Shown here piece by piece: positions 5,818 to 24,687 of a stretch of 64,000 bases of DNA. The number at the start of each line of letters is the position of its first letter. Within the stretch, counting starts at the first letter, position 1. Below the pieces are notes generated by a model that had not been told where the DNA came from, searched no databases, and saw nothing but the letters and a program-made list of their open reading frames with translations. The position numbers were made by a program, and so were the translations under genes. This DNA is from an uncultured virus (IMG/VR IMGVR_UViG_3300032316_001177) (lineage: Duplodnaviria; Heunggongvirae; Uroviricota; Caudoviricetes), in the IMG/VR virus record IMGVR_UViG_3300032316_001177, one strand, 5' to 3'.

Positions 5818-5825
5818 GAACTAAA

Positions 5826-8123: not shown

Positions 8124-8125
8124 CC

Positions 8126-8563
8126 ATGACCGTTCAAATATTAAGCCGCTTCTCAGATCTTCTTTATGATCGTCCATTTCCAACAAGATTAGGTGTACTT
8201 GCTGATGGCGTGGAAATGGCGTTGAACCATAACGCTATTGATCCGGGTTTATATTTTGCAGATAATACATCAGGTCCTACACGTGCCTTGATAAAAGTAG
8301 GCCCCACACATGTAGGCAGTACAGCTCCTAACCTCACACCTACTGGCCACACAAGCTACTCTAAGGGTGAATCCTGGTTAGATATTGCCAGCACTAAAAT
8401 CCTTAAGGTTTATGATGGCACAACATTTCAAGCAACAAATGCAGTTGCCTCTGTTAGTGCGGGTAAACCATCTAATCCGATAAACGGACAACTTCATTAT
8501 GATTCAGCTATACCAGGTTTATTTATATATTTAACAAGTAGTGCTAACTGGATTGCTATTTAA
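8126..8563 (+). CDS. Putative tail/fibre-associated protein
   Basis: KGESWLD...LKVYDGT and NGQLHYDS...LFIY fibre-type repeats. Confidence 0.5.
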   Translation: MTVQILSRFSDLLYDRPFPTRLGVLADGVEMALNHNAIDPGLYFADNTSGPTRALIKVGPTHVGSTAPNLTPTGHTSYSKGESWLDIASTKILKVYDGTTFQATNAVASVSAGKPSNPINGQLHYDSAIPGLFIYLTSSANWIAI

Positions 8564-8799
8564 CGCATTACCCTGTCAAGAATCCTATCTAACTTACTGT
8601 GAACAGCCTGCATCTCCCGGAGGAAGTCTTCTTTCAATACGTAATCTCTAATTAAACGGTCTTCTAAAGAGTCAAGCTTGTCTTCAATTTTTTCAAAACG
8701 TTTATTTAAACGCTCTTGAGAATTATACAAGGCCTTAGAGAGACCAGCAAACGCAGCGATTCCTGCAGAAAGAGCAGTTAGAATTGTTTCTATTGGCAT
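8560..8799 (-). CDS. Small membrane-anchored coiled-coil protein (holin/spanin-like candidate)
   Basis: Hydrophobic N-terminus, coiled coil, YVLKEDF motif. Confidence 0.45.
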   Translation of the reverse strand: MPIETILTALSAGIAAFAGLSKALYNSQERLNKRFEKIEDKLDSLEDRLIRDYVLKEDFLREMQAVHSKLDRILDRVMR

Positions 8800-8871
8800 T
8801 GTTTTAGTCCTCTTACTATATATTCTAAAGGATTTAACAACTTAGAATAACATTAGAAAAATAAAGGTATC

Positions 8872-9405
8872 ATGTCAACAGGGTACGATCCCAATATAGA
8901 AGGGGCTATTACTGTACTTGTTGATTTAATGTCAGGTAATGGTTTCACGCTTACCAGGCAACCATATGCGCCTAATTACAGGGGCTTAGTAGATTGCATT
9001 ATTGATTTAAAAGACGGTTTATATGCATATGTTCCACACAGGGTTGGATTTAATGTTGTAGTTTTTGAAAACGTAAATAAAAACGATGCGGTTTACCTTA
9101 GAGCAGCAGACGGTCAAGCAGGAAAAGCCATTGCAAGTGGCGTGTCTTTTGATGCTGCTTGTGTTATTGGATTTGCTGAAGAGGCTGTTCTTTCAGGCGG
9201 AACTGCAAGAGTCATTGTTGCAGGTTTCCAAAATTTTACAGCTACTTTAGATCCAGGGGATTTGTATTTCCTATCTGCCGCAACAGCTGGTCAAATCGCA
9301 ACAACACCACCAAGTACAGCTGGACAGTATGTGACAAGAGTAGGAGAGGCGTCAACAACCAGCGAATTTGTTATCCAAATAGAACCACCAATTAGGTTAA
9401 GGTAA
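8872..9405 (+). CDS. Head/capsid fibre-like structural protein
   Basis: DAVYLR..GQAGKAIA...IGFA...LDPGDLYFLS...YVTRVG; paralogous to the C-terminus of 9408-10223. Confidence 0.5.
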   Translation: MSTGYDPNIEGAITVLVDLMSGNGFTLTRQPYAPNYRGLVDCIIDLKDGLYAYVPHRVGFNVVVFENVNKNDAVYLRAADGQAGKAIASGVSFDAACVIGFAEEAVLSGGTARVIVAGFQNFTATLDPGDLYFLSAATAGQIATTPPSTAGQYVTRVGEASTTSEFVIQIEPPIRLR

Positions 9406-9407
9406 AT

Positions 9408-10223
9408 ATGTCAATCACACCAATAAGTAATACTGGTTTATATCCAGGTCTTTCTTGGGCCACTGTATTTACATCAGGTAACCAAAGCGGTATATTTGCA
9501 ATAAACGGTACGACAGCAACTGGAACACTTTTTGATTTTAAAAATTATTCTACGTCCGTTGAGCTTCTTTGTTGTTCTACTGATGGAATAGCTACAGTTT
9601 ACGCAAACGGTGTTGCCGCAACCGGAATTGCGGTTGGTAGTACTTATGCTTCAGCTACGTGGATAACAGTTCTTTCTGGAGCAGGTACATTAACAAGCAT
9701 AGCTGTTGAATCTATAAGTACACAAAGAGGAATATTATTTCAAATTCGTGTTGATGGAACTCAGCTTATTGATCTAAATTCTTACCCACCAAATGATGTT
9801 GGCGTAATCGAATCTTTAATAGATTTGAAAATAAATATAGCAAATATTTTACCAGTAAGATCGAGCTTGTCAATTATAGGAACTACATTTGAATCAATTT
9901 CACAAGGTGAGGCGGTGTATATGCGCAACAGTGACGGAAAGCTAGGTAGAGCCGTTGCTAATTCGACCGTTGAACTAGCTACTGTTATTGGTTTTGCCCG
10001 TGAAACAAAATCAACAGGTCAACTTTTACAAGCTTCTTTTGCTGGTATACAAGGAACAACGGGCCGCACTCCTGGCAGCATTTATTTTTTATCTGCCAGT
10101 TCTCCCGGCTCAATAGTAACGACTGCGCCATCTACTTCTTCTTACTACATCACAAGAGTAGGTAAGGCTGTGACCGCTACTCAACTTGCTGTGGAATTAG
10201 AACCGCCTATACTTTTAACATAG
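9408..10223 (+). CDS. Head/capsid fibre-like structural protein (paralog)
   Basis: GEAVYMR..GKLGRAVA...TPGSIYFLS...YITRVG...LEPPILL. Confidence 0.5.
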   Translation: MSITPISNTGLYPGLSWATVFTSGNQSGIFAINGTTATGTLFDFKNYSTSVELLCCSTDGIATVYANGVAATGIAVGSTYASATWITVLSGAGTLTSIAVESISTQRGILFQIRVDGTQLIDLNSYPPNDVGVIESLIDLKINIANILPVRSSLSIIGTTFESISQGEAVYMRNSDGKLGRAVANSTVELATVIGFARETKSTGQLLQASFAGIQGTTGRTPGSIYFLSASSPGSIVTTAPSTSSYYITRVGKAVTATQLAVELEPPILLT

Positions 10224-10275
10224 TGTCTAACTATACCCTTGATAATATAGATAATAAGGTAAGACCTGTGCAAGC

Positions 10276-11694
10276 ATGACAACTAGAAAACCTATTGTTT
10301 TAATTTCAGGGCTTTTTGAGCAAGTAAATACCCCGACGGATGGACTAGATTTTGCTGGAAATACAACAACAAATTTAACAGAAGGTACGAATCTTTATTA
10401 CACAGATACTAGGGCACGGTTATCAATTTCTGCTGGGAACACAGGAACTGGATACGGGTCTATAAGCTATAACAACAGTACCGGAGTACTTACGTATTCA
10501 GTAGTTACTGATGCAAATATCCGTGGCACATTAAGTGGAACTAATAGTGGAACTGGTTACGGAAGCCTTTCATATAATTCAGCTACTGGCGCCTTTACTT
10601 ATAGCGTAGTTACTGATGCAAATATCCGTGGGGCAATAAGTGTAGCTTCTGGATCAGGCCTAAGTTATAACAACAGTACAGGCATACTAACCACAAGCGC
10701 AATTCCTAATTCACAGCTTGCAAATAGCGCCATAACACTGGGCAGCACCTCAGTGTCCCTCGGAGCTACTGCAAGTAGCATCGCTGGGCTAACTGCACTT
10801 ACGGCTACAACACTTACAGCCGGTACCGGTGGCAACATATTTACTGGTTCTACATCTGGAACAACGACAGTTGTTGCTACAGCAATTGCATCTGGCACAA
10901 TCACATTACCAGCTTCGACCGGTACTGTTGCTCTGTTATCTTCTTTAAGCGCAACTAGTAGCGGAACTGGTTACGGCTCATTGAGCTATAACAGCAGCAC
11001 TGGCGCCTTTACATACTCAGTAGTTACAGACTTAAACATTAGAGGCGCATTAAGTGTAACTGGCGGTTCAGGGTTAACATACAACAGTACTACTGGAGCA
11101 TTTAGTACAAGTGCTATTCCAAACGCACAACTTGCTAATAGTAGCCTCACCGTTGGTTCTACATCAATTGCTCTTGGAAGCACTGCAACTAGCATCACTG
11201 GCTTAACTGCTTTAACCGCAACAACATTAACCGCAGGTACTGGCGGGAATATATTTACTGGGTCGTCATCAGGAACCACTACAGTTGTTGCCACAGCAGC
11301 AGCATCTGGAACCTTAACTCTTCCAGCTGTTACAAGCACTATTGCTGTTCTAGGCTTAGCGCAAAGTTACAGTGCGGCGCAACGTGGAACAATTAGTGTC
11401 CTCACAAGTAGTTCTTCTATTACTCCAGACTTTGCTGTTTCTAATAACTTTTCTTTAACTTTAGGTGCAAGCACTACAATCCAAAACCCATCGAACTTAA
11501 CTGCCGGACAAAGTGGCGCAATAGTTATTACTCAAGATGCGACCGGTTCGAGGACAATTGCATACGGTTCATTTTATAAATTTTCAGGTGGCACACCAAC
11601 TGCTACAACAACTGCAAATGCCGTTGACGTACTGGTTTATTATGTTGAATCAACTACAAGAATAACAGCTAGACTGATAACAAACGTGACATAA
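10276..11694 (+). CDS. Tail fibre protein with internal repeats
   Basis: T/S/G-rich; LTEGTNLYYT; three GTGYGSxSYNxxTGxxTYSVVTD repeats; C-terminal ITPDFAVSNNF...QDATGSRT domain. Confidence 0.75.
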   Translation: MTTRKPIVLISGLFEQVNTPTDGLDFAGNTTTNLTEGTNLYYTDTRARLSISAGNTGTGYGSISYNNSTGVLTYSVVTDANIRGTLSGTNSGTGYGSLSYNSATGAFTYSVVTDANIRGAISVASGSGLSYNNSTGILTTSAIPNSQLANSAITLGSTSVSLGATASSIAGLTALTATTLTAGTGGNIFTGSTSGTTTVVATAIASGTITLPASTGTVALLSSLSATSSGTGYGSLSYNSSTGAFTYSVVTDLNIRGALSVTGGSGLTYNSTTGAFSTSAIPNAQLANSSLTVGSTSIALGSTATSITGLTALTATTLTAGTGGNIFTGSSSGTTTVVATAAASGTLTLPAVTSTIAVLGLAQSYSAAQRGTISVLTSSSSITPDFAVSNNFSLTLGASTTIQNPSNLTAGQSGAIVITQDATGSRTIAYGSFYKFSGGTPTATTTANAVDVLVYYVESTTRITARLITNVT

Positions 11695-11700
11695 TAGATT

Positions 11701-12105
11701 ATGGCAACTCAAGTACAACTAAGGCGTGGTACGACCGCTCAAACAATCGCTTTTGCGGGTGCGCTGGGGGAAGTCACTGTTGATACACAGAAACTTACAG
11801 CCATAGTTCACGATGCTATAACACTTGGTGGGTTCCCACTTTTACGAGAAGATGGTACTAACTGTTTACTTTCTCCCGGTGCGCTAAACAGTTGCGCTCT
11901 TAAATTTGCTAACAGCGTTAATACTGGTATTATTAGTCCAGTACAGGCTCAATTATCTTTGGTGACGAACGGTGTTGCAAGGCTTACAATAGATTCTTCA
12001 GGGAGTGCAACCTTCTCTGGAAACCTCACCGTTAACGGAAGTCTTAGTGTCGCTGGCACCACTACTTCATCTGACACTTTAACCTTAATTATTGCTCTAA
12101 GTTAA
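11701..12105 (+). CDS. Tail protein with Mtd/hyaluronidase-type N-terminal domain
   Basis: MATQVQLRRGTTAQ...GALGEVTVDT...VHDAITLGGFPL. Confidence 0.7.
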   Translation: MATQVQLRRGTTAQTIAFAGALGEVTVDTQKLTAIVHDAITLGGFPLLREDGTNCLLSPGALNSCALKFANSVNTGIISPVQAQLSLVTNGVARLTIDSSGSATFSGNLTVNGSLSVAGTTTSSDTLTLIIALS

Positions 12106-12450
12106 ATGGCAAACACTTTTAAAAAAGATACAAAGTCAAGCCTTTTGACAGCTGATGTAACATCAAGCGCGACTACTAATATACTTACAGTTGGCGGCAC
12201 TGCTACTCTTGTTATTCTTAGTGTTTTGGTTTCAAACAAAACTGGTAGCAGTGCGAATGCAAATGTATATATTTCTTCTGCAGTTGGCGATTCAGTATTT
12301 CTTATAAAGAATGGGCCAGTACCAGCAGGTTCTTCGTTAGAACTTGTACAAGGTAATAAACTGATTATAGAACCGTCAGATGTTATCCGTGCTAGCTCAG
12401 ATACTGGCTCAGCACTTGACATAATGATTAGTTATTTGGAGCAAACATAA
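12106..12450 (+). CDS. Virion structural protein
   Basis: MANTFK...VPAGSSLELV.GNKLII...S.LE pattern typical of cyanophage tail-region proteins. Confidence 0.55.
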   Translation: MANTFKKDTKSSLLTADVTSSATTNILTVGGTATLVILSVLVSNKTGSSANANVYISSAVGDSVFLIKNGPVPAGSSLELVQGNKLIIEPSDVIRASSDTGSALDIMISYLEQT

Positions 12451-12857
12451 TGACAACAGGACTAACAACAATTGGTGATATTGACATCCTGTACAGACAG
12501 GTGAGTTCTTTAAAAGAAGATATTAAAAACAAAGGAGAACTAAAAGAAGAAACATATAATTTAAAAATTACTGAAATAGAAAAACGCCTTCAAGATTTAG
12601 AATCAAGAATCTTTGAAGAACGTGTTCTTGAACTAGATAATTCTTCTTGGAATAACATTATTCTAAAAAGAAATTACCTTCTTAAATCAACAGACTGGAC
12701 TGTTTCTTCTGGTTGCACTGTAGATCAATCTGCTTGGGTATCTTATAGACAGCAGTTGAGGGACTTACCACAAACGTTTTTCGGTGTAAAATTAAATGAA
12801 GTCCGGTGGCCAATAGCACCAGCTACTACTGGCCCGAACTCAATAAAAAATAAATAG
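12450..12857 (+). CDS. Tail fibre assembly chaperone
   Basis: RNYLLKSTDWT...WVSYRQQLRDLPQ...WP. Confidence 0.75.
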   Translation: MTTGLTTIGDIDILYRQVSSLKEDIKNKGELKEETYNLKITEIEKRLQDLESRIFEERVLELDNSSWNNIILKRNYLLKSTDWTVSSGCTVDQSAWVSYRQQLRDLPQTFFGVKLNEVRWPIAPATTGPNSIKNK

Positions 12858-12865
12858 GAACTGAC

Positions 12866-13696
12866 ATGCGTTATATAGGAAACACAACATTAACACCTGG
12901 CATAAGTTACCAACGTGTTGATAATATTGGATCTAGTTTTAACGGCGTTGCAACATCCTTTCCATTATTAGTTTCTGGTATTTCACCAGTCCCGTTTCCA
13001 TCTAACCCACAACAGTGTTTAATTTCTGTTAATGGTGTAATTCAAAAGCCAGACCCAACCGGTGCGGCTGGTTTTAATTTAGTAGGTACGAACATAGTAT
13101 TTGCCTCTGCTCCAACAGGAGGTTGGGCTTTCTTTGGAGTTGTTCTTGCTGGGTCTGATTTTGTTGCGGTGGGTGCTAGTTTTCCAGATGGTTCAAATAG
13201 TGCACCAAGTATTACATTTGATAATGCACCTACCACTGGTTTTTATCGCAGCGGTTCAAATGAAATTAGTGTTACTACCGGTGGTATTCAACGTGCTGTT
13301 TTTGACGCCAACGGTAATCTTGCTATAGGAGCATCTGTCGGTAATACCAAAATATATGTACAGGGAACTGGAGCAATGAACATTGCAACTTTAACCGATG
13401 GATCTACAATTACTCCTGATTTTTCAGTTGCCAATAACTTTACAGTCACTTTGACCGGAACACCTCGAACACTTGCCAACCCAACCGGCATGACTGTTGG
13501 GCAGAGTGGTTTGATTTACATTCTGCAAGATGCAACGGGAAGCAGGATTTTAAGTTATGGCAGTCACTGGAAATTCCCTGGCGGCCAATCATTTAAAAAT
13601 CTAAGCACCACAGCAAATGCAGTTGACTTAATTGGTTATACTGTACGTACAAGTACAAGCATTGTTTGCCAACTTGTGAACAACCTTACCCAATAA
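12866..13696 (+). CDS. Tail fibre protein
   Basis: ISVNGVIQKP, DGSNSAPSITF..TTGFY, and a C-terminal domain paralogous to that of 10276-11694. Confidence 0.7.
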   Translation: MRYIGNTTLTPGISYQRVDNIGSSFNGVATSFPLLVSGISPVPFPSNPQQCLISVNGVIQKPDPTGAAGFNLVGTNIVFASAPTGGWAFFGVVLAGSDFVAVGASFPDGSNSAPSITFDNAPTTGFYRSGSNEISVTTGGIQRAVFDANGNLAIGASVGNTKIYVQGTGAMNIATLTDGSTITPDFSVANNFTVTLTGTPRTLANPTGMTVGQSGLIYILQDATGSRILSYGSHWKFPGGQSFKNLSTTANAVDLIGYTVRTSTSIVCQLVNNLTQ

Positions 13697-13698
13697 TT

Positions 13699-16125
13699 AT
13701 GTCTATTCCAGGTTCTACCAACCCCTTATTATTATTCGGTGACGCTACTGGTGGCGCATTACAGATTAGTAGATCCTTAAGATTCAACAGTAGTGACAGT
13801 GCCTACTTGTCTAAAGTCTTCGCAGTAGCGGGGAATCAAAAGATTTGGACCTGGAGTGGATGGATTAAAAGAAGTAAACTCGGGACCGAGCAACGCTTCT
13901 TTGATGCGCGTGATGGCGGTTCGCAGCAATACATTAAATTTAATTCTAATGATGCCTTAAGAATTTTAGATTCAAACGGAACACTTATTACTTCTCAAGT
14001 TTTTAGAGACTTATCGGCTTGGTATCATGTGCTAATTGCCTTTGATACTACTCAATCAACTGCTTCAAATAGAATAAAATTATACGTCAATGGCTCGCAA
14101 GTTACAACATTTAGCACTGAATCATATCCCACTCAAAACAGTGATATATTATTTAACAGTGCTTGCACACACAGCATTAGCTGGAGTGCAGGCACTACTG
14201 AATGGTTTGACGGTTATTTAACCAATATCCACTTCATCAACGGTCAACAACTTACCCCCAGTAGTTTCACCGAAACCGATGCCACTACTGGGCAACTCAT
14301 ACCAAAAGCATACACCGGCAGTTATGGCACCAATGGCTTCAACCTTTTGTTTGCTGATAACTCCAGCAACACTGCCAGCACATTAGGGAAGGACTATAGC
14401 GGGCTGGGGAACAACTGGACCCCGAATAACTTATCCGTTACTGCTGGTGCTGGCAACGACAGCCTCGTAGACTCCCCCACTAATTACGGGACCGACACCG
14501 GCGTGGGCGGCGAGGTGAGAGGGAATTATTGCACCTGGAATCCGCTTGCAAATAGTGCCGCACAGCTTACATATTCAAATGGAAACTTAGACCTAGCACA
14601 ATCCAATGCTGCGTCGTATGCGTTACCTAATAGCACCATAGGTGTCAGTTCTAGTAAATGGTACTGGGAAACAACAATTACATCTTCAGGATCTTGCAGA
14701 ACTGGAGTTTTAAAAGATGGGAGCAGTCTTACCACGTTTCTAGGAAATTCCAGCACTGCTTATGGCTACGCTTCCGGCGGATACAAAGCTAACAGTAATA
14801 GCAACTCTGCCAGTGGCTACTCAACGTATACCAATGGTGATGTGATTGGTGTTGCACTAGATCTTGACAATGGCAAAATCTATTTCTCAAAGAATGGTAC
14901 TTGGCAAGAAAGCGGCAACCCAGCTACACAAACGAATCCTGCGTATACCGGACTTTCTGGTACATATTTTGCGTCTTGGGGTAAAGACGATTACGTCAAT
15001 ACAAGCTGTTCAGTTAACTTCGGCCAACGCGCATTTGCCTACACCGCACCATCAGGCTACAAAGCACTCTGTACACAGAATCTGCCAGCCACATTAGTCA
15101 CGAAGTCTAATACGGTAATGGATGTTGCATTATATACGGGTAATGGTGCAGCACGTAGTATCACCGGACTTGCATTTAATCCTGATTTTGTTTGGATAAA
15201 AGCGAGAAGCGCTAGCTACGACCACAGACTTGCTGATTCAGTTAGGGGTGTTGGCAAGGAACTATATTCAAACAATGCTAGTGCTGAAACAACCAACGAT
15301 GCCAACGGTTATGTTTCAGCTTTTAATTCAGATGGTTTTGCACTTCAATCGGGCATTGGAGTCAATGGATCTGGAGACACCTACGTCGCCTGGGCGTGGG
15401 ACGCAGGCACCTCAACCGTATCCAACACACAAGGCAGCATCACTAGTCAAGTGCGGGCTAACCCGACTGCTGGGTTCTCGGTGGTTACATTTAGTACACC
15501 CGGCTCTGCGGGTGACTACACAATCGGTCACGGACTTAATGTTGCGCCAAGTATGATAATAATTAAGGAAAGAACAAGGACATCTGGGTGGTATGTATAT
15601 CATGCTTCTGTCACGGATACTGTTAAAAAATATCTTATTTTAAATTCCACAAACGGTTTGAGTACTGACGCAAACAATATCTGGGGCAGCTCTCTTCCAA
15701 GTTCTACTGTCTTTGGAATTTCTAACGCAAACCTGCTTGCAGTTAATCAAAATATTGTTACATATTGCTTTGCTCCAGTATCCGGGTACTCTTCTTTTGG
15801 CAGCTACACCGGCAATGGAAGCGGAAGTGATGGTCCCTTTGTGTATACAGGGTTTAGGCCAAGGTTTCTAATGGTTAAACGTACCGATTCAACCACAAAC
15901 TGGTTTGTACTCGACACCGCAAGAAATACCTATAACGCAGTCAATAGTTACTTAATGCCTAATAGTAGCAGTGCAGAAGATCCAAACAACTCAACTGTTA
16001 ACACCGATTTTCTATCCAATGGCTTTAAGCTACGGGCGACCACAGATGCGCTTAACACCAGTAGCGCCACATACATATACATCGCTTTTGCCGAATCACC
16101 ATTTAATTACTCAAGAGCGCGGTAG
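13699..16125 (+). CDS. LamG/ConA-like + SPRY-like multidomain tail fibre (receptor-binding protein)
   Basis: SLRFN...WTWSGWIKRS...FRDLSAWYH (LamG-like); KWYWE...GDVIGVALDLDNGKIYFSKNG (SPRY-like); C-terminal PDFVWIK...AFAESPF. ATG at 13699. Confidence 0.8.
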   Translation: MSIPGSTNPLLLFGDATGGALQISRSLRFNSSDSAYLSKVFAVAGNQKIWTWSGWIKRSKLGTEQRFFDARDGGSQQYIKFNSNDALRILDSNGTLITSQVFRDLSAWYHVLIAFDTTQSTASNRIKLYVNGSQVTTFSTESYPTQNSDILFNSACTHSISWSAGTTEWFDGYLTNIHFINGQQLTPSSFTETDATTGQLIPKAYTGSYGTNGFNLLFADNSSNTASTLGKDYSGLGNNWTPNNLSVTAGAGNDSLVDSPTNYGTDTGVGGEVRGNYCTWNPLANSAAQLTYSNGNLDLAQSNAASYALPNSTIGVSSSKWYWETTITSSGSCRTGVLKDGSSLTTFLGNSSTAYGYASGGYKANSNSNSASGYSTYTNGDVIGVALDLDNGKIYFSKNGTWQESGNPATQTNPAYTGLSGTYFASWGKDDYVNTSCSVNFGQRAFAYTAPSGYKALCTQNLPATLVTKSNTVMDVALYTGNGAARSITGLAFNPDFVWIKARSASYDHRLADSVRGVGKELYSNNASAETTNDANGYVSAFNSDGFALQSGIGVNGSGDTYVAWAWDAGTSTVSNTQGSITSQVRANPTAGFSVVTFSTPGSAGDYTIGHGLNVAPSMIIIKERTRTSGWYVYHASVTDTVKKYLILNSTNGLSTDANNIWGSSLPSSTVFGISNANLLAVNQNIVTYCFAPVSGYSSFGSYTGNGSGSDGPFVYTGFRPRFLMVKRTDSTTNWFVLDTARNTYNAVNSYLMPNSSSAEDPNNSTVNTDFLSNGFKLRATTDALNTSSATYIYIAFAESPFNYSRAR

Positions 16126-16497
16126 CCCACAAGTGGACACGCCTACGGTGCTGGGGTGCAGCTAGGTTAACTGCATTAAACGTTTCTCGCCCGAAAGTTT
16201 GAGAACGCCCCTAAAAGCCCGGTCTCCACTTCTAACCCCATGGAAATCGACGGGTTTGCAACCATTTTCGTAACGCCACGGATATGGTAGGGTAGCGAGT
16301 GTTCACCAAGTTGGACAGTACCTGGCGTAGTGTTCAACTTATTAAACATAATGTTTTTGCGATCAAGATGAACCAATCACTTGTGGCATTTACCGTCATA
16401 AACTGCGTGGCGATAATTTGCTTTACGTACATTGTTACCAGGCGTTATTAGTCCTTGGCTTTCCTCCCCCGTGGAAATCGACGGATTTACTCAGGAA

Positions 16498-16580
16498 CTC
16501 CCCTCGATCCAGCGGCAGCTCTCCTCGATCCAGCGGCAGCTCCCCTCGATCCAGCGGCAGCTCCCCTCGATCCAGCGGCA
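16498..16580. repeat. Tandem repeat, 4 x 21 bp (CTCCCCTCGATCCAGCGGCAG)
   Basis: Copies at 16498, 16519 (one substitution), 16540 and 16561 (20 bp). Confidence 0.95.
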
Positions 16581-16781
16581 TGCCTCTTAGTCCCGCACAC
16601 TACGAGTTATGAGCACGACCGTATTTTGTCGTTAACGGATTGGCATTTCGTGGTCTACAAGGTTGCTAGGTGCTAATCCGTGATCCACAAAACCGATAAG
16701 TCAACGCCACTAGACCGGTCAACTTCTAGTTCGTTTTAAATTTCAGGATGTGCGGTAAGATAAGTCTTCTTATCCCGACCT

Positions 16782-17039
16782 ATGGCTGACTCTGCTTCAG
16801 TAGCAACTATTCTTACAGTTTCTATCCATCGAACAGATACGAATCCTGTTTATGGCCGTGGAGTTTTACAGATTTCTATTGACGACGAAGGCGCAGGGGG
16901 TTTTGTAAAAATTTGTGAATTAGGCGATGACCTAGAACATTACGTAAGCATTGACGCTGATGAACTAGATTTGGTTTTTCAGGAAGCCAAAAAACTTCTT
17001 GCTCAGAAAACACTGCGTTCTTTTAAGGATCTGATTTAG
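16782..17039 (+). CDS. Hypothetical protein
   Basis: 85 aa (IDDEGAGGFV); first of a small + strand cassette. Confidence 0.6.
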   Translation: MADSASVATILTVSIHRTDTNPVYGRGVLQISIDDEGAGGFVKICELGDDLEHYVSIDADELDLVFQEAKKLLAQKTLRSFKDLI

Positions 17040-17043
17040 TAAC

Positions 17044-17352
17044 ATGACACCACAACAAAACGACGTACTTTTGGCTGTCATTGATTTAATGAATGGTGGG
17101 ATGGACATGAGAGAAGCACTGGGATGTTACGCAATTATTTCCAAGTATGTTGTAAACACAATTCCATTTGATTCTGTAGAAAACGAGAACAATCGATTAA
17201 GACCGTTACCTGATCTTGAAAGGCAAGAAATAATGTGGCGTGTTGCTGTTACGTCCGCACTAGAGACAGGAGAGGCTCCGTATGCAATTTTTGCTGAACG
17301 TCTTCATAACTATCTTGTCAACTCTTCGCACTTACCAGTTCCCAAATTATGA
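17044..17352 (+). CDS. Hypothetical protein
   Basis: 102-aa ORF in the cassette. Confidence 0.55.
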   Translation: MTPQQNDVLLAVIDLMNGGMDMREALGCYAIISKYVVNTIPFDSVENENNRLRPLPDLERQEIMWRVAVTSALETGEAPYAIFAERLHNYLVNSSHLPVPKL

Positions 17353-17522
17353 AACCAAAATTTCTTGTCATACTGGATCAAGCAATTAACGAGGGTGTGC
17401 TCCGTGGGTACAGAAGGGCATTTAAACATGACGAAAATCCTGGTGAAGAACGTATATGTGAGGCTATTGAAGAATGTGTGCTAAGTTCTCTCTATGAGTA
17501 TTTTGATTTTGACGAGGAGTGA
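17349..17522 (+). CDS. Small hypothetical protein (not in ORF track)
   Basis: MKPKFLVILDQAINEGVLRGYRRAFKH...YEYFDFDEE, 57 aa, ATGA-coupled. Confidence 0.65.
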   Translation: MKPKFLVILDQAINEGVLRGYRRAFKHDENPGEERICEAIEECVLSSLYEYFDFDEE

Positions 17523-17565
17523 CGGCTCCCATATTGGAAAAAAACTATTTTCAAAAGGTGTTTAA

Positions 17566-17892
17566 ATGAAAAGAGTATGCAGCTACTGTAAAAAAACACA
17601 GCCACTAAATGAAAAACATTTTCAATTAGTGAAAACATTTAAGCAAGGATATTCCTTTTGTTGTTTAACTTGTAATGAACAAAATAAAAAACCAAAAACA
17701 AGAAAGAAAGATCAAAAGTTTCTTAGTGAAAAATTAGAAGTAAAAATACAACACCGTGATCTTGAAGAGTTAGTAAATATCCTTGGGTATTATAAAGGAA
17801 TGGTTGAATCTTCTGAAGAGAATGAGATAACTATAAATAATATAAATCGTATGCTCGGTAAAATAAAACACGAATTAAACAAACATAATTAG
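17566..17892 (+). CDS. Zn-finger (CxxC...CxxC) hypothetical protein
   Basis: CSYC...CLTC. Confidence 0.55.
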   Translation: MKRVCSYCKKTQPLNEKHFQLVKTFKQGYSFCCLTCNEQNKKPKTRKKDQKFLSEKLEVKIQHRDLEELVNILGYYKGMVESSEENEITINNINRMLGKIKHELNKHN

Positions 17893-17917
17893 TACTAAAT
17901 TACCATTCAACAGAATA

Positions 17918-17939
17918 AAGACCCTCCAAAGAAGGTCTT
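17918..17939. terminator. Hairpin between convergent genes
   Basis: AAGACC...GGTCTT between 17892 (+) and the psbA stop (-). Confidence 0.5.
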
Positions 17940-17959
17940 ATAACTTGTTAATTTATTTA

Positions 17960-19039
17960 TTAACCAATAGATGGTGCAGTAAGCGCAACAGAAGTTAATT
18001 CAGAAGCAGCAAGATCTAATGGAAAGTTGTGAGCATTTCTTTCATGCATAACTTCTAAGCCTAGTCCAGCACGGTTCAGAATGTCTGCCCAAGTTGGGAC
18101 GACACGATTCTGACTATCAACAATTGATTGGTTGAAATTAAATCCGTTAAGATTAAATGCCATTGTAGAAACACCCAGAGCAGTGAACCAAATGCCAACT
18201 ACTGGCCAAGCAGCTAAGAAGAAGTGAAGCGAACGTGAGTTATTAAAAGATGCATATTGAAAAATAAGGCGTCCAAAATAACCGTGGGCAGCCACAATGT
18301 TGTAGGTCTCTTCTTCTTGGCCAAACTTATAGCCATAATTGTGCGATTCATTCTCTGTGGTTTCCCGAACCAATGAAGAAGTTACAAGCGAACCATGCAT
18401 TGCACTAAAAAGTGATCCACCGAATACACCAGCAACTCCAAGCATGTGGAAGGGGTGCATAAGGATGTTGTGCTCAGCTTGGAATACCAACATGTAGTTA
18501 AACGTGCCGGAAATACCAAGGGGCATTGCATCAGAAAAAGACCCTTGACCGAAAGGATATACAAGGAATACAGCAGTTGCAGCAGCAACAGGTGCTGAAT
18601 AAGCAATGCAGATCCAAGGGCGCATTCCTAATCGATAGCTAAGTTCCCATTCGCGTCCCAGGTAAGCAAAGATGCCAATGAGGAAGTGGAATACGACGAG
18701 CTGGAACGGCCCACCGTTGTAGAGCCATTCATCAAGGGAAGCAGCTTCCCAAATTGGATAGAAATGTAATCCGATTGCATTTGAGGAGGGGACAACGGCT
18801 CCTGAAATAATGTTGTTTCCATAAAGTAAAGAGCCAGATACAGGCTCGCGGATCCCATCTATATCGACAGGTGGGGCACCAATAAAAGCTATGGTGAAGC
18901 AGACGGTGGCAGCAAGAAGTGTTGGAATCATTAGGACTCCAAACCAACCAACGTATATCCGATTTTCAGTTGAGGTTACCCAACGGCAAAATTGTTGCCA
19001 TAGGTTTGTTTGTTCTTGTAAGGCAATTGAAGCAGTCAC
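17960..19039 (-). CDS. psbA: Photosystem II D1 protein
   Basis: Complete D1: [29 protein letters not shown] (Glu130 type), [27 protein letters not shown] start. Confidence 0.99.
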
Positions 19040-19082
19040 TTTTAAAAGGGTAGGTATGAGCTCGGGGGACGAACGGGTTGTG

Positions 19083-19151
19083 TTATTCCCACATCACCCT
19101 CGGATGCGGGTATTAGAGATGATTTACTTCTGGTGATCTCGGTTTCAGAAG
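19083..19151 (-). ncRNA. PhotoRC-II-like structured psbA leader
   Basis: Minus strand CTTCTG-aaaccGAGATcac-CAGAAG-taaatc-ATCTC (possible pseudoknot), then CCCGCATC-cgagggt-GATGTGGG-aata, upstream of psbA; matches my recollection of the motif. Confidence 0.7.
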
Positions 19152-19310
19152 TGTAAGGAATTGTAAAGTTTTATCTTCGTTTCCTGACTTACTCAGTATA
19201 GCCTGTTTAAACAAAAGTTGTGAGGTCAGCCCAAAACCTTTAGTGGTTAAGGGTTTTCAAAGTGTACTAAAAAAACAAGTCTATAATTAATAAAGAAAGA
19301 ATTATTTTAG

Positions 19311-20105
19311 TTGGCTGTTAATCCTAACAATTTTTTAAAAGAATATCTTGACCCGATCAAAGATTCAGGGGAAGGTACGTTTGGTTATAAGCCTGAATTA
19401 GAGTACGAGGATACGGCAGGACTGTTCGGAAGCGTTTTACAAAAAGCACAACAATTTGTTAATAGCGCAAATAAATTAGGAACCGATGTTTACAGTGGTG
19501 CTGGTAAAGCTTATGAAAATGTTGATAAGACAGTATTTAAAGGGTCGCTTCCCTATGGTTCAGATTATGTTAAACCCAGTAGAAGCATTCCGGCACTTTT
19601 AAACGATGTCTTAGATAAAGGATTAATTCCAGTTCCAACAACAGATAGAAACAACTGGGCAGCAGCCACTGGCGTCAAGGCTTACGCTGGCCCATTGGGT
19701 AAACCATTTAGAGTGATGGATAATCCAGATGCGGCAAAGTATAGGTATGAAACCCTTGGTTACGCGCAACCATCAAATAATAATATTAATTATGGATTAA
19801 GTACCACCGGGAAGTACAGACAAGGATATGAGAAATTAAGGGATGAACCCGCAAATATGGCAATCGGCCAATATTCAGCAACCCCAGATCGTTTTGGTTT
19901 TGTAAATGTAACAGATAATTACAATACAAACAACCCTCTCAGTTGGTATTTTAATAAAGTTGTTGAAGGTTCCCCAAGTGAGAAAGGTTTTTACGCAGTT
20001 GCCGGGGCAGGTAAGGCCTTGGAAAACATTGGCTGGTTAAATCAACGTCCCCTTGGTTCAAGTGTCCCCATGGGTTTTGTGAATCCCACTAATCGAAACA
20101 ACTGA
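19311..20105 (+). CDS. Hypothetical protein (possible virion cargo)
   Basis: 264 aa, TATAAT about 30 nt upstream, N-terminal FLKEYL motif. Confidence 0.6.
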   Translation: MAVNPNNFLKEYLDPIKDSGEGTFGYKPELEYEDTAGLFGSVLQKAQQFVNSANKLGTDVYSGAGKAYENVDKTVFKGSLPYGSDYVKPSRSIPALLNDVLDKGLIPVPTTDRNNWAAATGVKAYAGPLGKPFRVMDNPDAAKYRYETLGYAQPSNNNINYGLSTTGKYRQGYEKLRDEPANMAIGQYSATPDRFGFVNVTDNYNTNNPLSWYFNKVVEGSPSEKGFYAVAGAGKALENIGWLNQRPLGSSVPMGFVNPTNRNN

Positions 20106-20294
20106 AATTACAATTCCAAGTAAAATCCACGTTCCGTCCGCAAAAACATTGATCCTATGTCGTAACTCTGCGTGGTTATTCTGTGTTTCATATGCTTTAT
20201 TTAGTTGATACATATCAGTAAGCCCCCAGTAAGATGAAACGGTTGCTGCACTAAGGCCAAATACAAAGGAACAAGAAAGAAAAAAGTTTTTCAT
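20058..20294 (-). CDS. Small membrane protein
   Basis: Two hydrophobic segments. Confidence 0.5.
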   Translation of the reverse strand: MKNFFLSCSFVFGLSAATVSSYWGLTDMYQLNKAYETQNNHAELRHRINVFADGTWILLGIVISVVSISGIHKTHGDT

Positions 20295-20426
20295 ATGCTT
20301 TGTGAAAATTTAAAAAAGTTAATAGATAGGATTAAGGTAAGATGTAAGCGATTTAACGTCATGCTTAGGACGATTATTTAAAGTAAAAACAAAACGTTTG
20401 TTACAATTAATTTAACAGTTGCTTGC

Positions 20427-20684
20427 GTGGTCATGCCTAACTGGCTCTGGCGTTCAATACTTGCTACAGCAGCTTCAATCATGTTGCTTACTGTTGCTCA
20501 GTGGGGCGCCTGTAGATTTTATGTTTTCCCAACAGCATGGCCTTGGTACGCTAAGTATGTAGGTACTCCTGAAGGTAAAGCTATTGAAGCTCAGCCAACT
20601 TGTGCAGACAGTGATAGCAGAGCCATAACATCTATGATGGCAGTGTTAACAACATTAATAAGCCTTAGTCGTAAGGCTGATTAA
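20427..20684 (+). CDS. Small membrane protein
   Basis: Two hydrophobic segments, paired Cys. Confidence 0.5.
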   Translation: MVMPNWLWRSILATAASIMLLTVAQWGACRFYVFPTAWPWYAKYVGTPEGKAIEAQPTCADSDSRAITSMMAVLTTLISLSRKAD

Positions 20685-20699
20685 CCTTATTTAGTAAGC

Positions 20700-21551
20700 T
20701 TATAGAACAGGCATCTCATACTCTTGAGTAACGTTTACATAATGCTTCCAAATAACTTCCGAACTATTACCTGCCCAGTTTGCAACTTGTGCTACTGGAA
20801 TCTGGGCCTCAATCCACCGGCTAATTGCGGTATGCCGTAAGTCATATGGCCTATACCTATTTTGGATAAGTTTATCTGCGTGCAACTCTTTCATTCGATC
20901 ATAAAAATAACTTTGAAACGCATACCTATTCCAGGGAAAAATATATTCATTGGCTTTTGATACAGCAGACATAATTTCTTGGCACCTAGTATTTAAAGGA
21001 ACCCACCGTTTTCTATTTGTTTTTGTTGAATTCTTATACCCATGAGTAAGAGTATAGTTACTATGCACAAGGATCTTATTTTCTTTTATATCTTCCCATT
21101 TAAGTGCGCGTACTTCTCCAGTGCGCATTGCAGTTTGCAACATAAACTCAGAATAAAATGCCCAGTTAGCGCCGTTACGTGGTTGTTTTGATCCAAGTGC
21201 TTTCAAAACCAGTTCTGTTTCTTGCCGTGGAATTACAATAATATCAACATCTTCTTGTGGTGGTTTTGGCATTTTAAAACTAATAATTGGGTTCTTATCG
21301 ATTAATTTTATATCTTCACTGGATGCCCAACGATATAACGATTTTATGTACATTGTTACGCGCCGACTAGATTTAATAGGTTTTTGACTTAATGTCCATG
21401 TTAATATTTTTCTTCCCTCATTTAAATCTGTAATTGGGCATTTGTTTAACCAATTACCTACTTGCCTGTAGTCCGCAAGCAGACTAGTTGGACACAGGGC
21501 AATAGCTCTTTCGGCTTTGAATTGTTCCCAGGCTTCAAGCAGTGTTGTCAT
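20700..21551 (-). CDS. Tyrosine recombinase/integrase
   Basis: TAMRTGEVRALKW (Arg I), STKTNRKR (Lys), YDLRHTAIS (Arg II), VANWAGNS...HY; no obvious arm-binding domain. Confidence 0.9.
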   Translation of the reverse strand: MTTLLEAWEQFKAERAIALCPTSLLADYRQVGNWLNKCPITDLNEGRKILTWTLSQKPIKSSRRVTMYIKSLYRWASSEDIKLIDKNPIISFKMPKPPQEDVDIIVIPRQETELVLKALGSKQPRNGANWAFYSEFMLQTAMRTGEVRALKWEDIKENKILVHSNYTLTHGYKNSTKTNRKRWVPLNTRCQEIMSAVSKANEYIFPWNRYAFQSYFYDRMKELHADKLIQNRYRPYDLRHTAISRWIEAQIPVAQVANWAGNSSEVIWKHYVNVTQEYEMPVL

Positions 21552-21644
21552 TAGCGGGAACTCTGTCGGCCCAGACTAGCATAAAATCGGTTAATGTGCT
21601 GCAAGAGCTGAGAAGGCTTACAATAATTAAAAACCTGAAGCATA

Positions 21645-22211
21645 ATGTTTCTTTTAAACGGTAAGCCAATATCTCCAGATTCTCCATTTGTAACACCGGA
21701 TGGAACCCAGTACCCTTCAAATTGGATTCGATTATCTTCCCCTGAAGATCGCAAAGCAATTGGAATTACTGAGGTCCCTGATCCCCCTTATTACGATCAA
21801 CGGTTTTATTGGGCTCCAGGGATACCTAAAGACCACGACCAGTTGGTAGTTCAATGGGTGGATCAAACCAGACAGACTGCTAATACCTTAATTAGTCCTA
21901 CAGATTGGATGATTGTGCGTTCTGTTGATAACGGAAAAGAAACAGATCCAACCGTTAAAACCTGGAGGGAAAACATACGTACTACATCGGGGAGTAAAGT
22001 TTTAAAAATTAAGAACACGAAAACTACAGATGACTTAGCTAATTTTGTTACTTCAGCTGAGTATTCCACTTGGCCCATACAGGGCGCCAGTAACAACCTA
22101 GTTACCTCAGATTCAGTGATTGGCTCTGGAACAACGGATTACGTTACTGGTTCTAGTGGCATAGATTATCTTTCATTTAATTCAGGCACTACGACTTCTG
22201 GTATAGTTTAG
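21645..22211 (+). CDS. Tail fibre-associated/assembly protein
   Basis: MFLLNGKP...QYPSNWIRL...IGITEVPDPPYYDQRFYW...PTDWMIVR, a family I associate with LamG/SPRY fibre genes in cyanophages. Confidence 0.6.
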   Translation: MFLLNGKPISPDSPFVTPDGTQYPSNWIRLSSPEDRKAIGITEVPDPPYYDQRFYWAPGIPKDHDQLVVQWVDQTRQTANTLISPTDWMIVRSVDNGKETDPTVKTWRENIRTTSGSKVLKIKNTKTTDDLANFVTSAEYSTWPIQGASNNLVTSDSVIGSGTTDYVTGSSGIDYLSFNSGTTTSGIV

Positions 22212-22231
22212 TATTAACACTTGACGCCACT

Positions 22232-23482
22232 GTGAAAACATCTGCACAAGGCTTAAAATTAATAAAAGAATTTGAAGGCCTTAGGCTTACCGCTTATTAC
22301 GATGTAGTTGGCGTTTTAACCATAGGGTATGGGCATACAGGAGATGATGTATATGTTGGTCAGACAATTACTGAACAACAAGCTGAACAACTACTTCAAA
22401 AAGATTTAGACTTTTTTGAACAATCAGTAAGTAAATTAATTTCAATAAATTTAAATCAGAATCAATTTGATGCACTTGTAAGTTTTACTTATAATGTCGG
22501 GGCCGGTGCGTTAGGTGAATCTACTTTACGCAAGCGTTTAAATAGCGGAGAGAATCCCAATATTGCAGCAACACAGGAATTAGTGAAGTGGACAAAAGGT
22601 GGTGATGGTCAGAGTATAGCTGGTTTAATAAGGCGCAGAACAACAGAAATTAAGTTATTCTGTACTGTTAATAACCAAAAAGAGGAAATACCTACCATTA
22701 GTGTTACCTCTCTTCAGCAAACTTGGTTTAAGAAAGAGCCTAAGCCCGCAGACAAACTTGCTAATGAGAGTAAAGCAAAGGTCTATCAGGGAAGAACATA
22801 CCCAGGTAATCAAGTTTTAGAAAAGAAAGATCAACATACTCTGCTTGAAATGGGAAATAAAATGGGTAGATGGTGGATTTACGACGCTCATTGGAGTGGA
22901 CTAACACCGAAGATAAACCCTTATGCACAGGATGGAGATTTACGTTATTTACGTAACTTTCCTTTCTTTGATCAAAAAGATAACGGCCCCGAGGGTTGGC
23001 GCCAATGTCAGACAAGCTCAATTGCGATGTGTTTAAAATACCTTAACGTAAAAGAAATAAAAGACGATACAGATTATTTTAAAGTTGTTGACCGTTTTGG
23101 CGATACAACTACTAGGGACGCTCATTACAAAGCGTTAGAAGCGCTTAATGTATCTGCAAAATTTTATACAAACTTAGAAGAACAGGATATTAAAGATCAG
23201 ATCGATAAAGGTAAACCTGTGGCTGTGGGTATCCTCCACCACGGCACTGTAGACTCCCCACGTGGCGGTGGGCACTTCATAACCATCTCAGGCTACAGCA
23301 GTACTTATTGGCTAGTTCAGGACCCTTATGGAGACCTAGACTTAGTTAACGGAGTATGGGAGAACCAGTCCCCTGGTGCAGGTAAAAACCGTCACTATAG
23401 TTTTAAAAACTTAAACCCACGTTTGTTTTACGGTGGCTGTGCTAATGGCTGGGGTTGGATCATTAAGGGAAGTAAGGGTTAA
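22232..23482 (+). CDS. Endolysin: GH24 lysozyme + C39-like peptidase
   Basis: LIKEFEGLRLTAYYDVVGVLTIGYGHT...NQFDALVSFTYNVG; QCQTSSIAM...GGHFITISGY...VQDPYG. Confidence 0.9.
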   Translation: MKTSAQGLKLIKEFEGLRLTAYYDVVGVLTIGYGHTGDDVYVGQTITEQQAEQLLQKDLDFFEQSVSKLISINLNQNQFDALVSFTYNVGAGALGESTLRKRLNSGENPNIAATQELVKWTKGGDGQSIAGLIRRRTTEIKLFCTVNNQKEEIPTISVTSLQQTWFKKEPKPADKLANESKAKVYQGRTYPGNQVLEKKDQHTLLEMGNKMGRWWIYDAHWSGLTPKINPYAQDGDLRYLRNFPFFDQKDNGPEGWRQCQTSSIAMCLKYLNVKEIKDDTDYFKVVDRFGDTTTRDAHYKALEALNVSAKFYTNLEEQDIKDQIDKGKPVAVGILHHGTVDSPRGGGHFITISGYSSTYWLVQDPYGDLDLVNGVWENQSPGAGKNRHYSFKNLNPRLFYGGCANGWGWIIKGSKG

Positions 23483-23533
23483 CCTTGCGTTTAAATAAAA
23501 ACCTGTTAACATTCAAGTAGTTATCTTAGTCTG

Positions 23534-23752
23534 ATGATTGAAAACGTGTTAGAACTGGAGAAAGGATTGCAGGAGCAACTAAAGTCCTTAACGTCAGAAA
23601 TTAGAACAGCAGAGGCCAATTTAATTTCTAGTAAAGAAGGCTATCTAAAAGTTCAAGGGGCTTTAGAAGTTCTTAATATTCTAAAAGAACAACTAGAAGA
23701 CAAGGCCAACAAACAAATCCTAGAAGCGTGTCAAATTATGAGCCCAGATTAA
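23534..23752 (+). CDS. Coiled-coil hypothetical protein
   Basis: 72 aa, LKVQGALEVL. Confidence 0.55.
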   Translation: MIENVLELEKGLQEQLKSLTSEIRTAEANLISSKEGYLKVQGALEVLNILKEQLEDKANKQILEACQIMSPD

Positions 23753-23848
23753 CTGTGCCGGTTCGGCTTACACTAAACCCTGTATTTTATTGTTAGTATG
23801 TATACAGATGTATGCGCCATATCTTTTATTTAGAAGCATGAGCGCAAC

Positions 23849-24259
23849 GTGTTTCACACTGAGAACGAACTCTTAGCTGAACTAATTGTCCTTACTCCAA
23901 AACTCGCTCGAAAAAAATTCCGTCAAAGTATTTTTGAGGCGTGGAAGTGGAACTGCGCTTATTGTGAGAAACAACTTTGTCATAATACCGCTACGATTGA
24001 TCACATTGTTCCAAAGCATAAGGGTGGACATAACTCAAGGAATAATCTTGCCTGTTGTTGCTGTTCTTGTAACTCCGCTAAAGGATCTCAAAAACTTAGT
24101 TTATGGTATACAGACGGCAATCCTAAATACACTAAAGAAAGGGCTGATAAGATTAAAGAATGGACAGAGCAGAAACCAAAGTCCTTAAACCTAGCCGCTG
24201 CTTATCAGGCTATTCCGTATATTTGTGAGGATGCATATGTTGGATGGATTGCAACCTGA
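23849..24259 (+). CDS. HNH endonuclease
   Basis: CAYC...TIDHIVPKHKGG...NLACCCCSCNSAKG. Confidence 0.9.
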   Translation: MFHTENELLAELIVLTPKLARKKFRQSIFEAWKWNCAYCEKQLCHNTATIDHIVPKHKGGHNSRNNLACCCCSCNSAKGSQKLSLWYTDGNPKYTKERADKIKEWTEQKPKSLNLAAAYQAIPYICEDAYVGWIAT

Positions 24260-24275
24260 TAGACAACAACCAGCA

Positions 24276-24407
24276 ATGGTGCCGTCTGAGTTCCTTGCTG
24301 GCTATGTTCAAAAATTAAATTCCTACAGAAGGCCAGACCCATTTGAAATTGCGGATAAAGGCGCTGTATCTCAAGATGTAGCAACAAATCTGGCTGGTCG
24401 AATGTAG
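24276..24407 (+). CDS. Small hypothetical protein
   Basis: MVPSEFLAGYVQKL..., fills the gap before 24410; start uncertain. Confidence 0.45.
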   Translation: MVPSEFLAGYVQKLNSYRRPDPFEIADKGAVSQDVATNLAGRM

Positions 24408-24409
24408 AT

Positions 24410-24682
24410 ATGGCAGACCACGCTAAGGCTAAGCGTCTATCAAAAGAGCACATGAAGTGTAATAAACCTCAACGTGCCCCAGCTGGTGATACCCATAAAT
24501 GGGTGGTTAAGTCTTGTCATGATGGGGAAGAGGCTATAGTTCGTTACGGGCGAAGAGGTTATGAGGACTACACCCAACATGGAGATAAAGATCGGAGGAA
24601 AAATTTCAGGGCTAGAATGGGATGTGATAAACCCATGGATAAAAATACGCCTAAATACTGGGCGTGCTCACACCTTTGGTAA
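24410..24682 (+). CDS. DUF5754-like basic protein
   Basis: VRYGRRGYEDYTQHGDKDRRKNFRAR...TPKYWA. Confidence 0.55.
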   Translation: MADHAKAKRLSKEHMKCNKPQRAPAGDTHKWVVKSCHDGEEAIVRYGRRGYEDYTQHGDKDRRKNFRARMGCDKPMDKNTPKYWACSHLW

Positions 24683-24687
24683 TTTAA

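Follow-up and report, generated by a model that had tools for sequence, protein, structure and literature searches.

Modular exchange of adhesin segments among T4-type phages is placed by Trojet et al. (2011, PMC3157838), who cite Tetart et al. 1996 and 1998, inside conserved adhesin motifs or close to them. Here we compare with this and other systems a tail-fibre gene at 13666-16125 and a non-coding element at 16588-16713 in a 64,000-nucleotide stretch of DNA (IMG/VR record IMGVR_UViG_3300032316_001177; hereafter the window), which is a tailed cyanophage, and relate both to a tyrosine recombinase (integrase) encoded downstream. The mosaic fibre gene and the integrase-linked element both belong to known kinds of system. 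Our joint reading, to which we give a probability of roughly 0.6, is that the fibre gene is shuffled by homologous recombination at its domain junctions and that the element belongs with the integrase, likely as its attP or as a junction with cargo DNA.

The original prediction for this region was that inverted-arm sites of the form WAGW-N7-HCTW are candidate tyrosine-recombinase core sites at which the integrase could swap receptor-binding domains. Its seven sites are:

13789-13807, + strand: site 1, AGTAGT-gacagtg-CCTACT; within junction island 13780-13812, 16 codons ahead of the LamG envelope
14468-14482, + strand: site 2, TAGA-ctccccc-ACTA; LamG/SPRY linker, in island 14448-14546
15093-15111, + strand: site 3, ATTAGT-cacgaag-TCTAAT; SPRY/DUF7483 junction, in island 15013-15135
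16131-16145, + strand: site 4, AAGT-ggacacg-CCTA; begins 6 nt past the fibre stop codon
16588-16602: site 5, TAGT-cccgcac-ACTA; left end of module C
16698-16712: site 6, AAGT-caacgcc-ACTA; right end of module C
16711-16725: site 7, TAGA-ccggtca-ACTT; overlaps site 6

A sequence check found all seven with these letters at these positions, and each spacer has its own sequence and is GC-rich (G or C at 4-6 of its 7 positions), as had been claimed. Pfam domain coordinates of the open reading frame (ORF) starting at 13666 bear out the placement relative to the fibre domains. The letters are real, and so is the phenomenon, a domain-wise shuffling of the fibre; inside the gene, the mechanism fails the tests that were proposed along with it.

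The closest precedent for that mechanism is provided by shufflons and phage invertases, in which a site-specific recombinase alters the C-terminal region of an adhesin. The phage tail-fibre invertase systems include Mu Gin, P1 Cin and p15B Min. In R64, Rci is reported to act on asymmetric sfx sites (bioRxiv 10.1101/2024.10.25.620183).

A mosaic tail-fibre gene

The fibre gene is a real mosaic, in which near-identical islands of DNA lie between diverged segments and are shared reticulately among relatives. Its parts are listed below; the nearest relative, G001, is a 25-kb fragment.

13666-16125, + strand: tail-fibre or receptor-binding gene; ORF start TTG 13666, likely start the in-frame ATG 13699
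Fibre domains (Pfam; ORF from 13666): LamG aa 58-192, SPRY aa 331-414, DUF7483 aa 484-812
14222-14433, + strand: junction island, LamG end and linker; identity about 90% with G001, 84-93% with many relatives
14432-14448, + strand: domain-insertion hot spot, where relatives carry 380-900 bp encoding a second LamG, Gly_rich_2 or a domain like ORF 9408-10223
14448-14546, + strand: junction island, start of the SPRY module, contains site 2
15013-15135, + strand: junction island, SPRY/DUF7483 boundary, contains site 3
15382-15488, + strand: DNA-identity island inside DUF7483, with no + strand motif match

Over 10943-13863 and 17914-34556, G001 is 98-99% identical to the window. Within 13813-16115 it is 71-92% identical, in blocks split by unalignable DNA, and near-identical islands lie at 13780-13812, 14222-14433, 14454-14540, 15019-15135, 15390-15450 and 16116-16141. 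Between these islands the two sequences are 60-75% identical or cannot be aligned, and G001 carries about 790 bp of additional DNA at 14433/14454. Across related metagenomic phages, the junction islands are 30-270 bp stretches of near-identical DNA. The BLAST blocks of relatives start and stop repeatedly at identical window positions, and the best relative varies from block to block. Exact 26-mers from the two islands 14448-14546 and 15013-15135 occur at 12 IMG/VR loci for one and 18 for the other; 26 distinct IMG/VR contigs have one or the other, and only four of these have both.

The domains between the islands vary among relatives. The architectures observed are LamG-LamG-SPRY-DUF7483 (second LamG in G001, L080 and L071), LamG-Gly_rich_2-SPRY-DUF7483 (L060, L082) and LamG-LamG-SPRY without DUF7483 (L074). 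In L070 and L063 the domain inserted at 14432/14448 is 39-53% identical to part of a different tail gene of the window, ORF 9408-10223, and domains therefore move between different tail genes. The 78-kb phage G002 is otherwise unrelated to the window (four BLAST blocks of at least 150 nt), yet it has the junction islands. The claim that the gene is shuffled domain by domain is thereby upheld, with junctions that include sites 1-3 and touch site 4. Fibre-like sequence was also seen at both contig ends of G002 (L091-L094), matching window 15016-15461 and 15016-15202; either G002 has two fibre paralogues, or a single gene is divided between the contig ends.

The same three-domain protein is found at 33-43% identity in pelagiphages, cyanophages and roseophages, and in 49 of the 72 phage records with a match to the fibre protein the match covers at least 80% of it. 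At the DNA level, a search of the phage collection with 13000-17500 gave just short matches of 70-83%, in pelagiphages and roseophages. A limited search of the literature on SPRY tail fibres in cyanophages found nothing on this gene family. The gene shows that the host-range determinants of freshwater or marine cyanophages are rebuilt from a common domain pool, at junctions resolved to a few tens of bases and present even in an otherwise unrelated 78-kb phage. This is useful for predicting and reading host-range change, but the principle is not new, having been seen in T4-type phages and others.

Sites 1-3, and partly site 4, fall within junction stretches that are near-identical across the phage pool, with differing domains between them. 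These stretches would give the homology needed for recombination between co-infecting phages or prophages, which could proceed via host RecA or a phage exonuclease-type system and would have the exchange or insertion of whole domains as its outcome. The window encodes an exonuclease-family protein and SSB. In its combination of conserved and hypervariable parts in a receptor-binding gene, and in its chimeras drawn from a wide phage pool, the locus resembles T4-type gp37/gp38 (PMC3157838). It differs from them in its cyanophage LamG, SPRY and DUF7483 domains, in its 30-270 bp identity islands and in the insertion of whole domains at one junction; in addition, we infer the homologous nature of the recombination from sequence alone.

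A conserved element linked to the integrase

The non-coding DNA that follows the fibre gene is a patchwork of an 87-bp insert, module A, two 22-bp copies, four 21-bp repeats and module C; G001 has the same modules in a different order. These modules and the features downstream of them are:

16126-16781: non-coding stretch, 656 bp
16229-16360: module A, non-coding; first CCCCRTGGAAATCGACGGRTTT copy at 16236-16257, second copy at 16467-16488
16498-16580: four tandem copies of the 21-bp CTCCCCTCGATCCAGCGGCAG
16588-16713: module C, conserved hairpin element with sharp ends, site 5 at the left and site 6 at the right; extends to 16725
16698-16725: union of sites 6 and 7, AAGTCAAC-N12-GGTCAACTT, centre CTAG; candidate integrase core site
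16126-21613: accessory island with non-coding modules, small ORFs, psbA, PhotoRC-II RNA, ORF 19311-20105 and integrase; absent from the syntenic relative G003
17960-19039, - strand: psbA
19075-19166, - strand: PhotoRC-II RNA (Rfam)
20700-21551, - strand: tyrosine recombinase (integrase), 283 aa; Phage_integrase domain at aa 131-276

Sites 5, 6 and 7, predicted as recombinase sites, coincide with the two ends of module C, and these downstream sites mark a conserved, integrase-linked element. The element contains an imperfect inverted repeat (16624-16645 / 16671-16692). Its universal part, about 16622-16712, consists of this repeat and site 6; several lineages have other sequence in place of the left 36 nt. 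A 29-nt core was located at 5 IMG/VR and 23 metagenome loci, of which 27 were counted after one G001 duplicate was dropped; some of these (23 metagenome and 4 further IMG/VR loci) are possibly the same sequence deposited in two collections. The 27 loci are conserved up to CACTA(G/C), beyond which the first 6 nt of the right flank come in 8 versions that belong to at least 7 classes. A 28-bp stretch, the union of sites 6 and 7 with the junction at its centre, looks like the best candidate for a real core because GGT(C/A)AC(C/T)T stands 3-4 nt beyond the junction in 15 of the 27 loci. Judged by eye, this union alone shows dyad symmetry that is weak but longer than the short arms of the sites, at 16 of 28 positions.

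Four records (the window, G001/G006, G413 and G414) have both element and integrase, and G002, G003, G004 and G005 have neither. At four of the 27 loci (L196, L227, L231, L234), 74 nt separate the junction from the 3' end of an integrase about 70% identical to that of the window. G003 lacks 16126-21613 but is otherwise syntenic with the entire window, at an identity of 65-91% and for the most part 70-77%, which places the integrase in an accessory island.

Temperate phages have attP-integrase modules, and in cyanophages such as P-SSP7 and P-SS2 the integrase lies beside a host-matching attP. The present locus is like such attP-integrase modules in having a conserved non-coding element beside the integrase 3' end in four relatives, in the co-occurrence of the two and in its variable cargo, which includes psbA. 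It departs from them in that the element lies 4 kb from the integrase in the window, that no host attB or prophage junction was found in 401 genomes, and that an integrase of 283 aa leaves no obvious room for an arm-binding domain. From the sequence comparisons we infer that the integrase acts on module C. Sites 5-7 would then be the ends of a hairpin element that belongs with the 283-aa integrase, most likely its own attP or else a junction repeatedly joined to cargo DNA. To our knowledge, few cyanophage integrases have been connected with a functional site. If true, a repeated cargo junction beside psbA would bear on the acquisition of host-like genes by phages.

Several observations weigh against this assignment. 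Two fragments, G411 (62% complete) and G412 (17%), have the element and no integrase, and many element loci have other DNA, not an integrase, in the 1.5 kb to their right. The 4-kb separation recurs in G001. The stretch 16580-16730 folds no better than its shuffles (z = -0.68; equalled or bettered by 41 of 200 shuffles). In a sample of 401 picocyanobacterial genomes, which may not include the true host, an attB search with 16583-16730 gave matches in 69 genomes at E <= 1, the best at 0.0032 and at noise level, and an integrase homologue, hence a prophage, was absent at E <= 1e-10. Searched against the same genomes, 19170-21700 returned noise only (E >= 1.6e-4), and 16126-16781 matched via the 21-bp tandem repeat only, in 14 of the 401. 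One match, CGCCACCAGACCGGTCAAATT, recurs at 19 of 21 positions in four orthologous host loci and lies at no tRNA; none of the nine host loci with weak matches has a tRNA, nor does host locus L208.

A different explanation is that element C is regulatory or structural, an RNA hairpin at the end of the late operon or a set of operator half-sites TTTGTSGWTMAC / GTGATCCACAAA resembling a cluster upstream of brxL in some host bacteriophage exclusion (BREX) loci, and that its link to the integrase is merely one of position. The element does stand right after the fibre gene and folds as a long hairpin, although, as noted above, no better than shuffled sequence. Rfam gave no match in 16050-16850 at E <= 10; in 15900-17100 there is no terminator-like site, and promoter-like sites number one where 1.4 are expected. 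Three picocyanobacterial genomes also contain the half-sites ATCCGTGATCCACAAA and TTTGTCGTT(A/C)AC in the gap between Fic and brxL, but these host matches have per-genome E values of 0.003-0.05 in the 401-genome search and could be due to chance. Many element loci have no adjacent integrase; against this, the element is absent from the syntenic, integrase-free G003. On balance we consider a regulatory or structural role unlikely.

The resemblance to BREX loci has two parts. The arms of element C (16624-16695) resemble a cluster of GTGATCCACAA / TTGTGGATCA in the Fic-brxL gap of three picocyanobacterial BREX loci (L208 3765-3825, L218 and L222). In G152 this gap contains GTGATCCACAA copies in both orientations; in G269 it holds a 19/20 and an 11/12 match, and G148 has the same cluster. 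Single matches in the gap are at noise level in the 401-genome search. The 16-mer GTGATCCACAAAACC is also found at unrelated host loci, and the similarity to a BREX operator therefore rests on three genomes only. The second part is the 21-bp repeat, which matches, at about 80% identity, the stretch coding for DRGEL heptad repeats in an AlbA_2/HATPase_c_4 gene of some 620 aa. This is the match found in 14 of the 401 genomes, and only the repeat matches, not the rest of the gene. In G152 the AlbA_2/HATPase_c_4 gene lies within a BREX locus (PglZ, Fic, BrxL), 4.2 kb from the gap with the arm-like copies. The co-location in one BREX locus of a repeat-matching gene and an arm-like cluster is no more than suggestive.

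Integrons (IntI, attI, attC) are another system in which a tyrosine recombinase lies near a single-nucleotide joining site and a hairpin-forming element, here of about 90-126 bp. The attC R''/R' consensus is RYYYAAC / GTTRRRY. This consensus is not visible by eye in the element, which is present in one copy per genome and with no cassette array, and the window integrase gives no integron-specific match and only weak Xer-like ones. The window integrase has the length of a Xer protein. By analogy with integron attI, the integrase, together with the hairpin element whose end is AAGTCAACGCCACTA(G/C), may constitute a site of cargo capture instead of a plain attP, where unrelated segments were joined at one exact nucleotide across phage lineages; among these segments are the one with psbA, others with small ORFs, and a piece similar to a host gene that in G152 lies within a BREX defence locus. 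We regard this variant as distinctly improbable. In a bolder form of it, the half-sites may copy the operator-like cluster upstream of brxL, and the phage may target or mimic the host BREX locus.

The 87-bp insert just past the fibre stop codon is a separate feature. It is flanked by a 10-bp inverted repeat, AAGTGGACAC / GTCTCCACTT, at 16131-16140 / 16222-16231 and looks like a small palindromic insertion. G001, L197 and L063 lack 16142-16228, with the indel boundary inside site 4.

Islands, motifs and breakpoints within the fibre gene

Codon use was compared in an alignment of the window, 24 close homologues and a further 17 that are more distant, from which exact duplicates and the weakest rows were left out. 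The close set had been picked by exact 26-mers in two islands, and the 17 distant relatives via peptides located elsewhere. In the close set, codon identity given the same amino acid is 0.7-0.9 in 14266-14535, 15016-15135 and 15376-15465 and 0.3-0.5 outside the islands, conserved protein stretches included. In the distant set it stays at a baseline of 0.25-0.51, except for 0.67 at 15016-15045. Since the distant set is at baseline, the identity of the islands reflects shared descent in a gene pool and not a family-wide constraint on the DNA. The stretches of raised codon identity are ten times longer than the sites.

These data also bear on the idea that the islands are kept by a nucleic-acid function, such as mRNA structure, internal regulatory signals or packaging, and are neither substrates of recombination nor homogenised by it. 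Synonymous conservation in the islands of the close set does exceed that of other protein-conserved stretches of the gene, and block 15016-15045 is raised in the independently chosen distant set as well. Beyond this block, however, distant homologues that keep the peptides use codons freely, Rfam gave no match in the fibre gene at the gathering score, domain content switches exactly at the islands, and the sharing of islands is reticulate, as seen from the four of 26 contigs with both 26-mers. A conserved nucleic-acid function is thus very unlikely to account for the islands.

The motif itself does not behave as a conserved site. At site 2, L056, L057, L065 and L022 keep an identical peptide while synonymous changes abolish the motif; at site 1, which is retained in 10 of 41 relatives, L056, L057 and L071 have nearly the same peptide with TCA/TCG serine codons in place of AGT. 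The expected synonymous-site conservation is therefore contradicted, at sites 1 and 2, by motif loss where the peptide is kept. The 41 relatives contain 97 matches against 31.8 expected, of which 73 are at the inherited positions 13791, 14468, 15095, 15779 and 15162; the other 24 are under expectation, and the 12 most distant homologues have 7 matches against 11.5 expected.

Breakpoints were called with a two-state hidden Markov model on 300 sequence pairs. The 2302 identity transitions peak at island edges (15001-15015, 14251-14265, 14461-14475, 14386-14400 and 15121-15135), and, in pairs that are not independent, they are spread along the edges of homology tracts and not fixed at a single nucleotide. 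Sites 1-3 hold 68 of them (3.0%) on 2.2% of the gene length, and a local minimum lies inside site 3, in bin 15091-15105. The claim that mosaic breakpoints fall on the sites accordingly finds no support, as transitions pile up at island edges and not in the spacers. Five relatives change to a different C-terminal module at about 15083-15090, 5' of the left arm of site 3.

The fibre half of our reading has its own points against it. Selection of the close set inside two islands inflates conservation there, and the cross-check at the island unused for selection is moderate (72-92% identity). The settings of the breakpoint model were chosen by the analyst, its sequence pairs are non-independent, and one peak, with 107 transitions at 14461-14475, reaches into site 2 over its first 8 nt. 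Neither Pfam nor PHROGs recognised a single-strand annealing protein in the window. In addition, the local excess of the motif described below is unexplained by base composition, and its post hoc definition explains part only.

On both strands of the whole window, WAGW-N7-HCTW occurs 78 times against 78.6 +/- 11.0 in 100 dinucleotide shuffles, 49 of which reach 78; counted against shuffled sequence, the window thus lacks the enrichment that the original prediction called for. On the + strand of 13789-16725 there are nine matches (the seven predicted sites plus 15699 and 15825) against 0.96 +/- 0.99 in 1000 local dinucleotide shuffles, none of which reaches nine. The densest 2937-nt span has 11 distinct positions, and the highest value among 200 whole-window shuffles is 10; when the + strand alone is counted, the observed nine is reached by 3 of 200. 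Nine pairs have a WAGW-to-HCTW start offset of 11, compared with 0-4 pairs at every other offset in the range 4-30. Of 112 motif variants of equal shape, this one comes first. The looser AG-N9-CT occurs 20 times against about 10 expected. The consensus was fitted post hoc to these same sites, and because it is degenerate and drawn from them, the local excess has no clean probability.

Tyrosine-recombinase cores consist of a 6-8 bp spacer flanked by a pair of inverted binding arms, each about 9-13 bp long. The arms here are far shorter: the consensus gives 4 bp, and sites 1 and 3 reach 5-6 bp if a mismatch is allowed. The motif shows neither a frequency above chance in the window as a whole nor retention in homologues. 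Three phages with the junction 26-mers, G002 (91% complete), G003 (96%) and G004 (85%), gave neither an integrase homologue nor a six-frame Phage_integrase (PF00589) match, and the same holds for G005 (71% complete, terminal repeats), a relative of the fibre at the protein level; the control genomes of this search all gave matches. Co-occurrence with the recombinase, which had been proposed as a test, consequently fails for sites 1-3, in view of G002-G004, and holds for sites 5-7 in a small sample.

A shufflon- or invertase-like switch was also considered. Such systems require several inverted copies of one crossover site and silent cassettes in each genome, and none were found here: the fibre gene and the DNA downstream (13600-21700) share no linking repeat of at least 14 nt beyond weak, chance-like pairs, and tblastn of 42 fibre proteins against 16126-21700 (E <= 1e-3) revealed no silent C-terminal cassette. 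With neither a repeated crossover site nor a downstream cassette, this switch is excluded.

There are observations that would suit core sites within the fibre gene: the sites lie at domain junctions where exchange does occur, the motif is locally over-represented, and some breakpoints come within 5-20 nt of a site (15083-15090 for site 3, 14448 for site 2) or, at 16141/16142, inside site 4. Yet DNA identity continues on both sides of every site, and the unique spacers permit allelic exchange only, which 30-270 bp of flanking identity already permits via homologous recombination. The matches look like incidental parts of the junction islands. The proposal that each match is a core at which the integrase swaps fibre domains of co-infecting phages at matching spacers is already contradicted by the co-occurrence test and, given the synonymous losses, the breakpoints at island edges and the unique spacers, is barely credible.

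Other features of the window

The remaining landmarks are:

about 5044-16125: tail and fibre genes
22232-23482: endolysin

Replication genes follow downstream of the endolysin region. No tRNA was found in the window, and the PhotoRC-II RNA is the sole Rfam match in it at the gathering score. Mtd_N is a domain of the major tropism determinant familiar from diversity-generating retroelements, and ORF 11701-12105 has an N-terminal Mtd_N domain. A perfect tandem repeat of 30 bp x 3 lies at 31963-32051 within ORF 31000-32355. A tandem repeat of 22 bp x 2.6 at 63771-63828, in an AT-rich stretch near the end of the window, might be iteron-like. Within ORF 17044-17352, 210 bp (17078-17287) are absent from G001, with flanks 99.7-100% identical, and L197 and L194 have a fusion of the leader 16711-16781 with the ORF whose start in the window is 17349.

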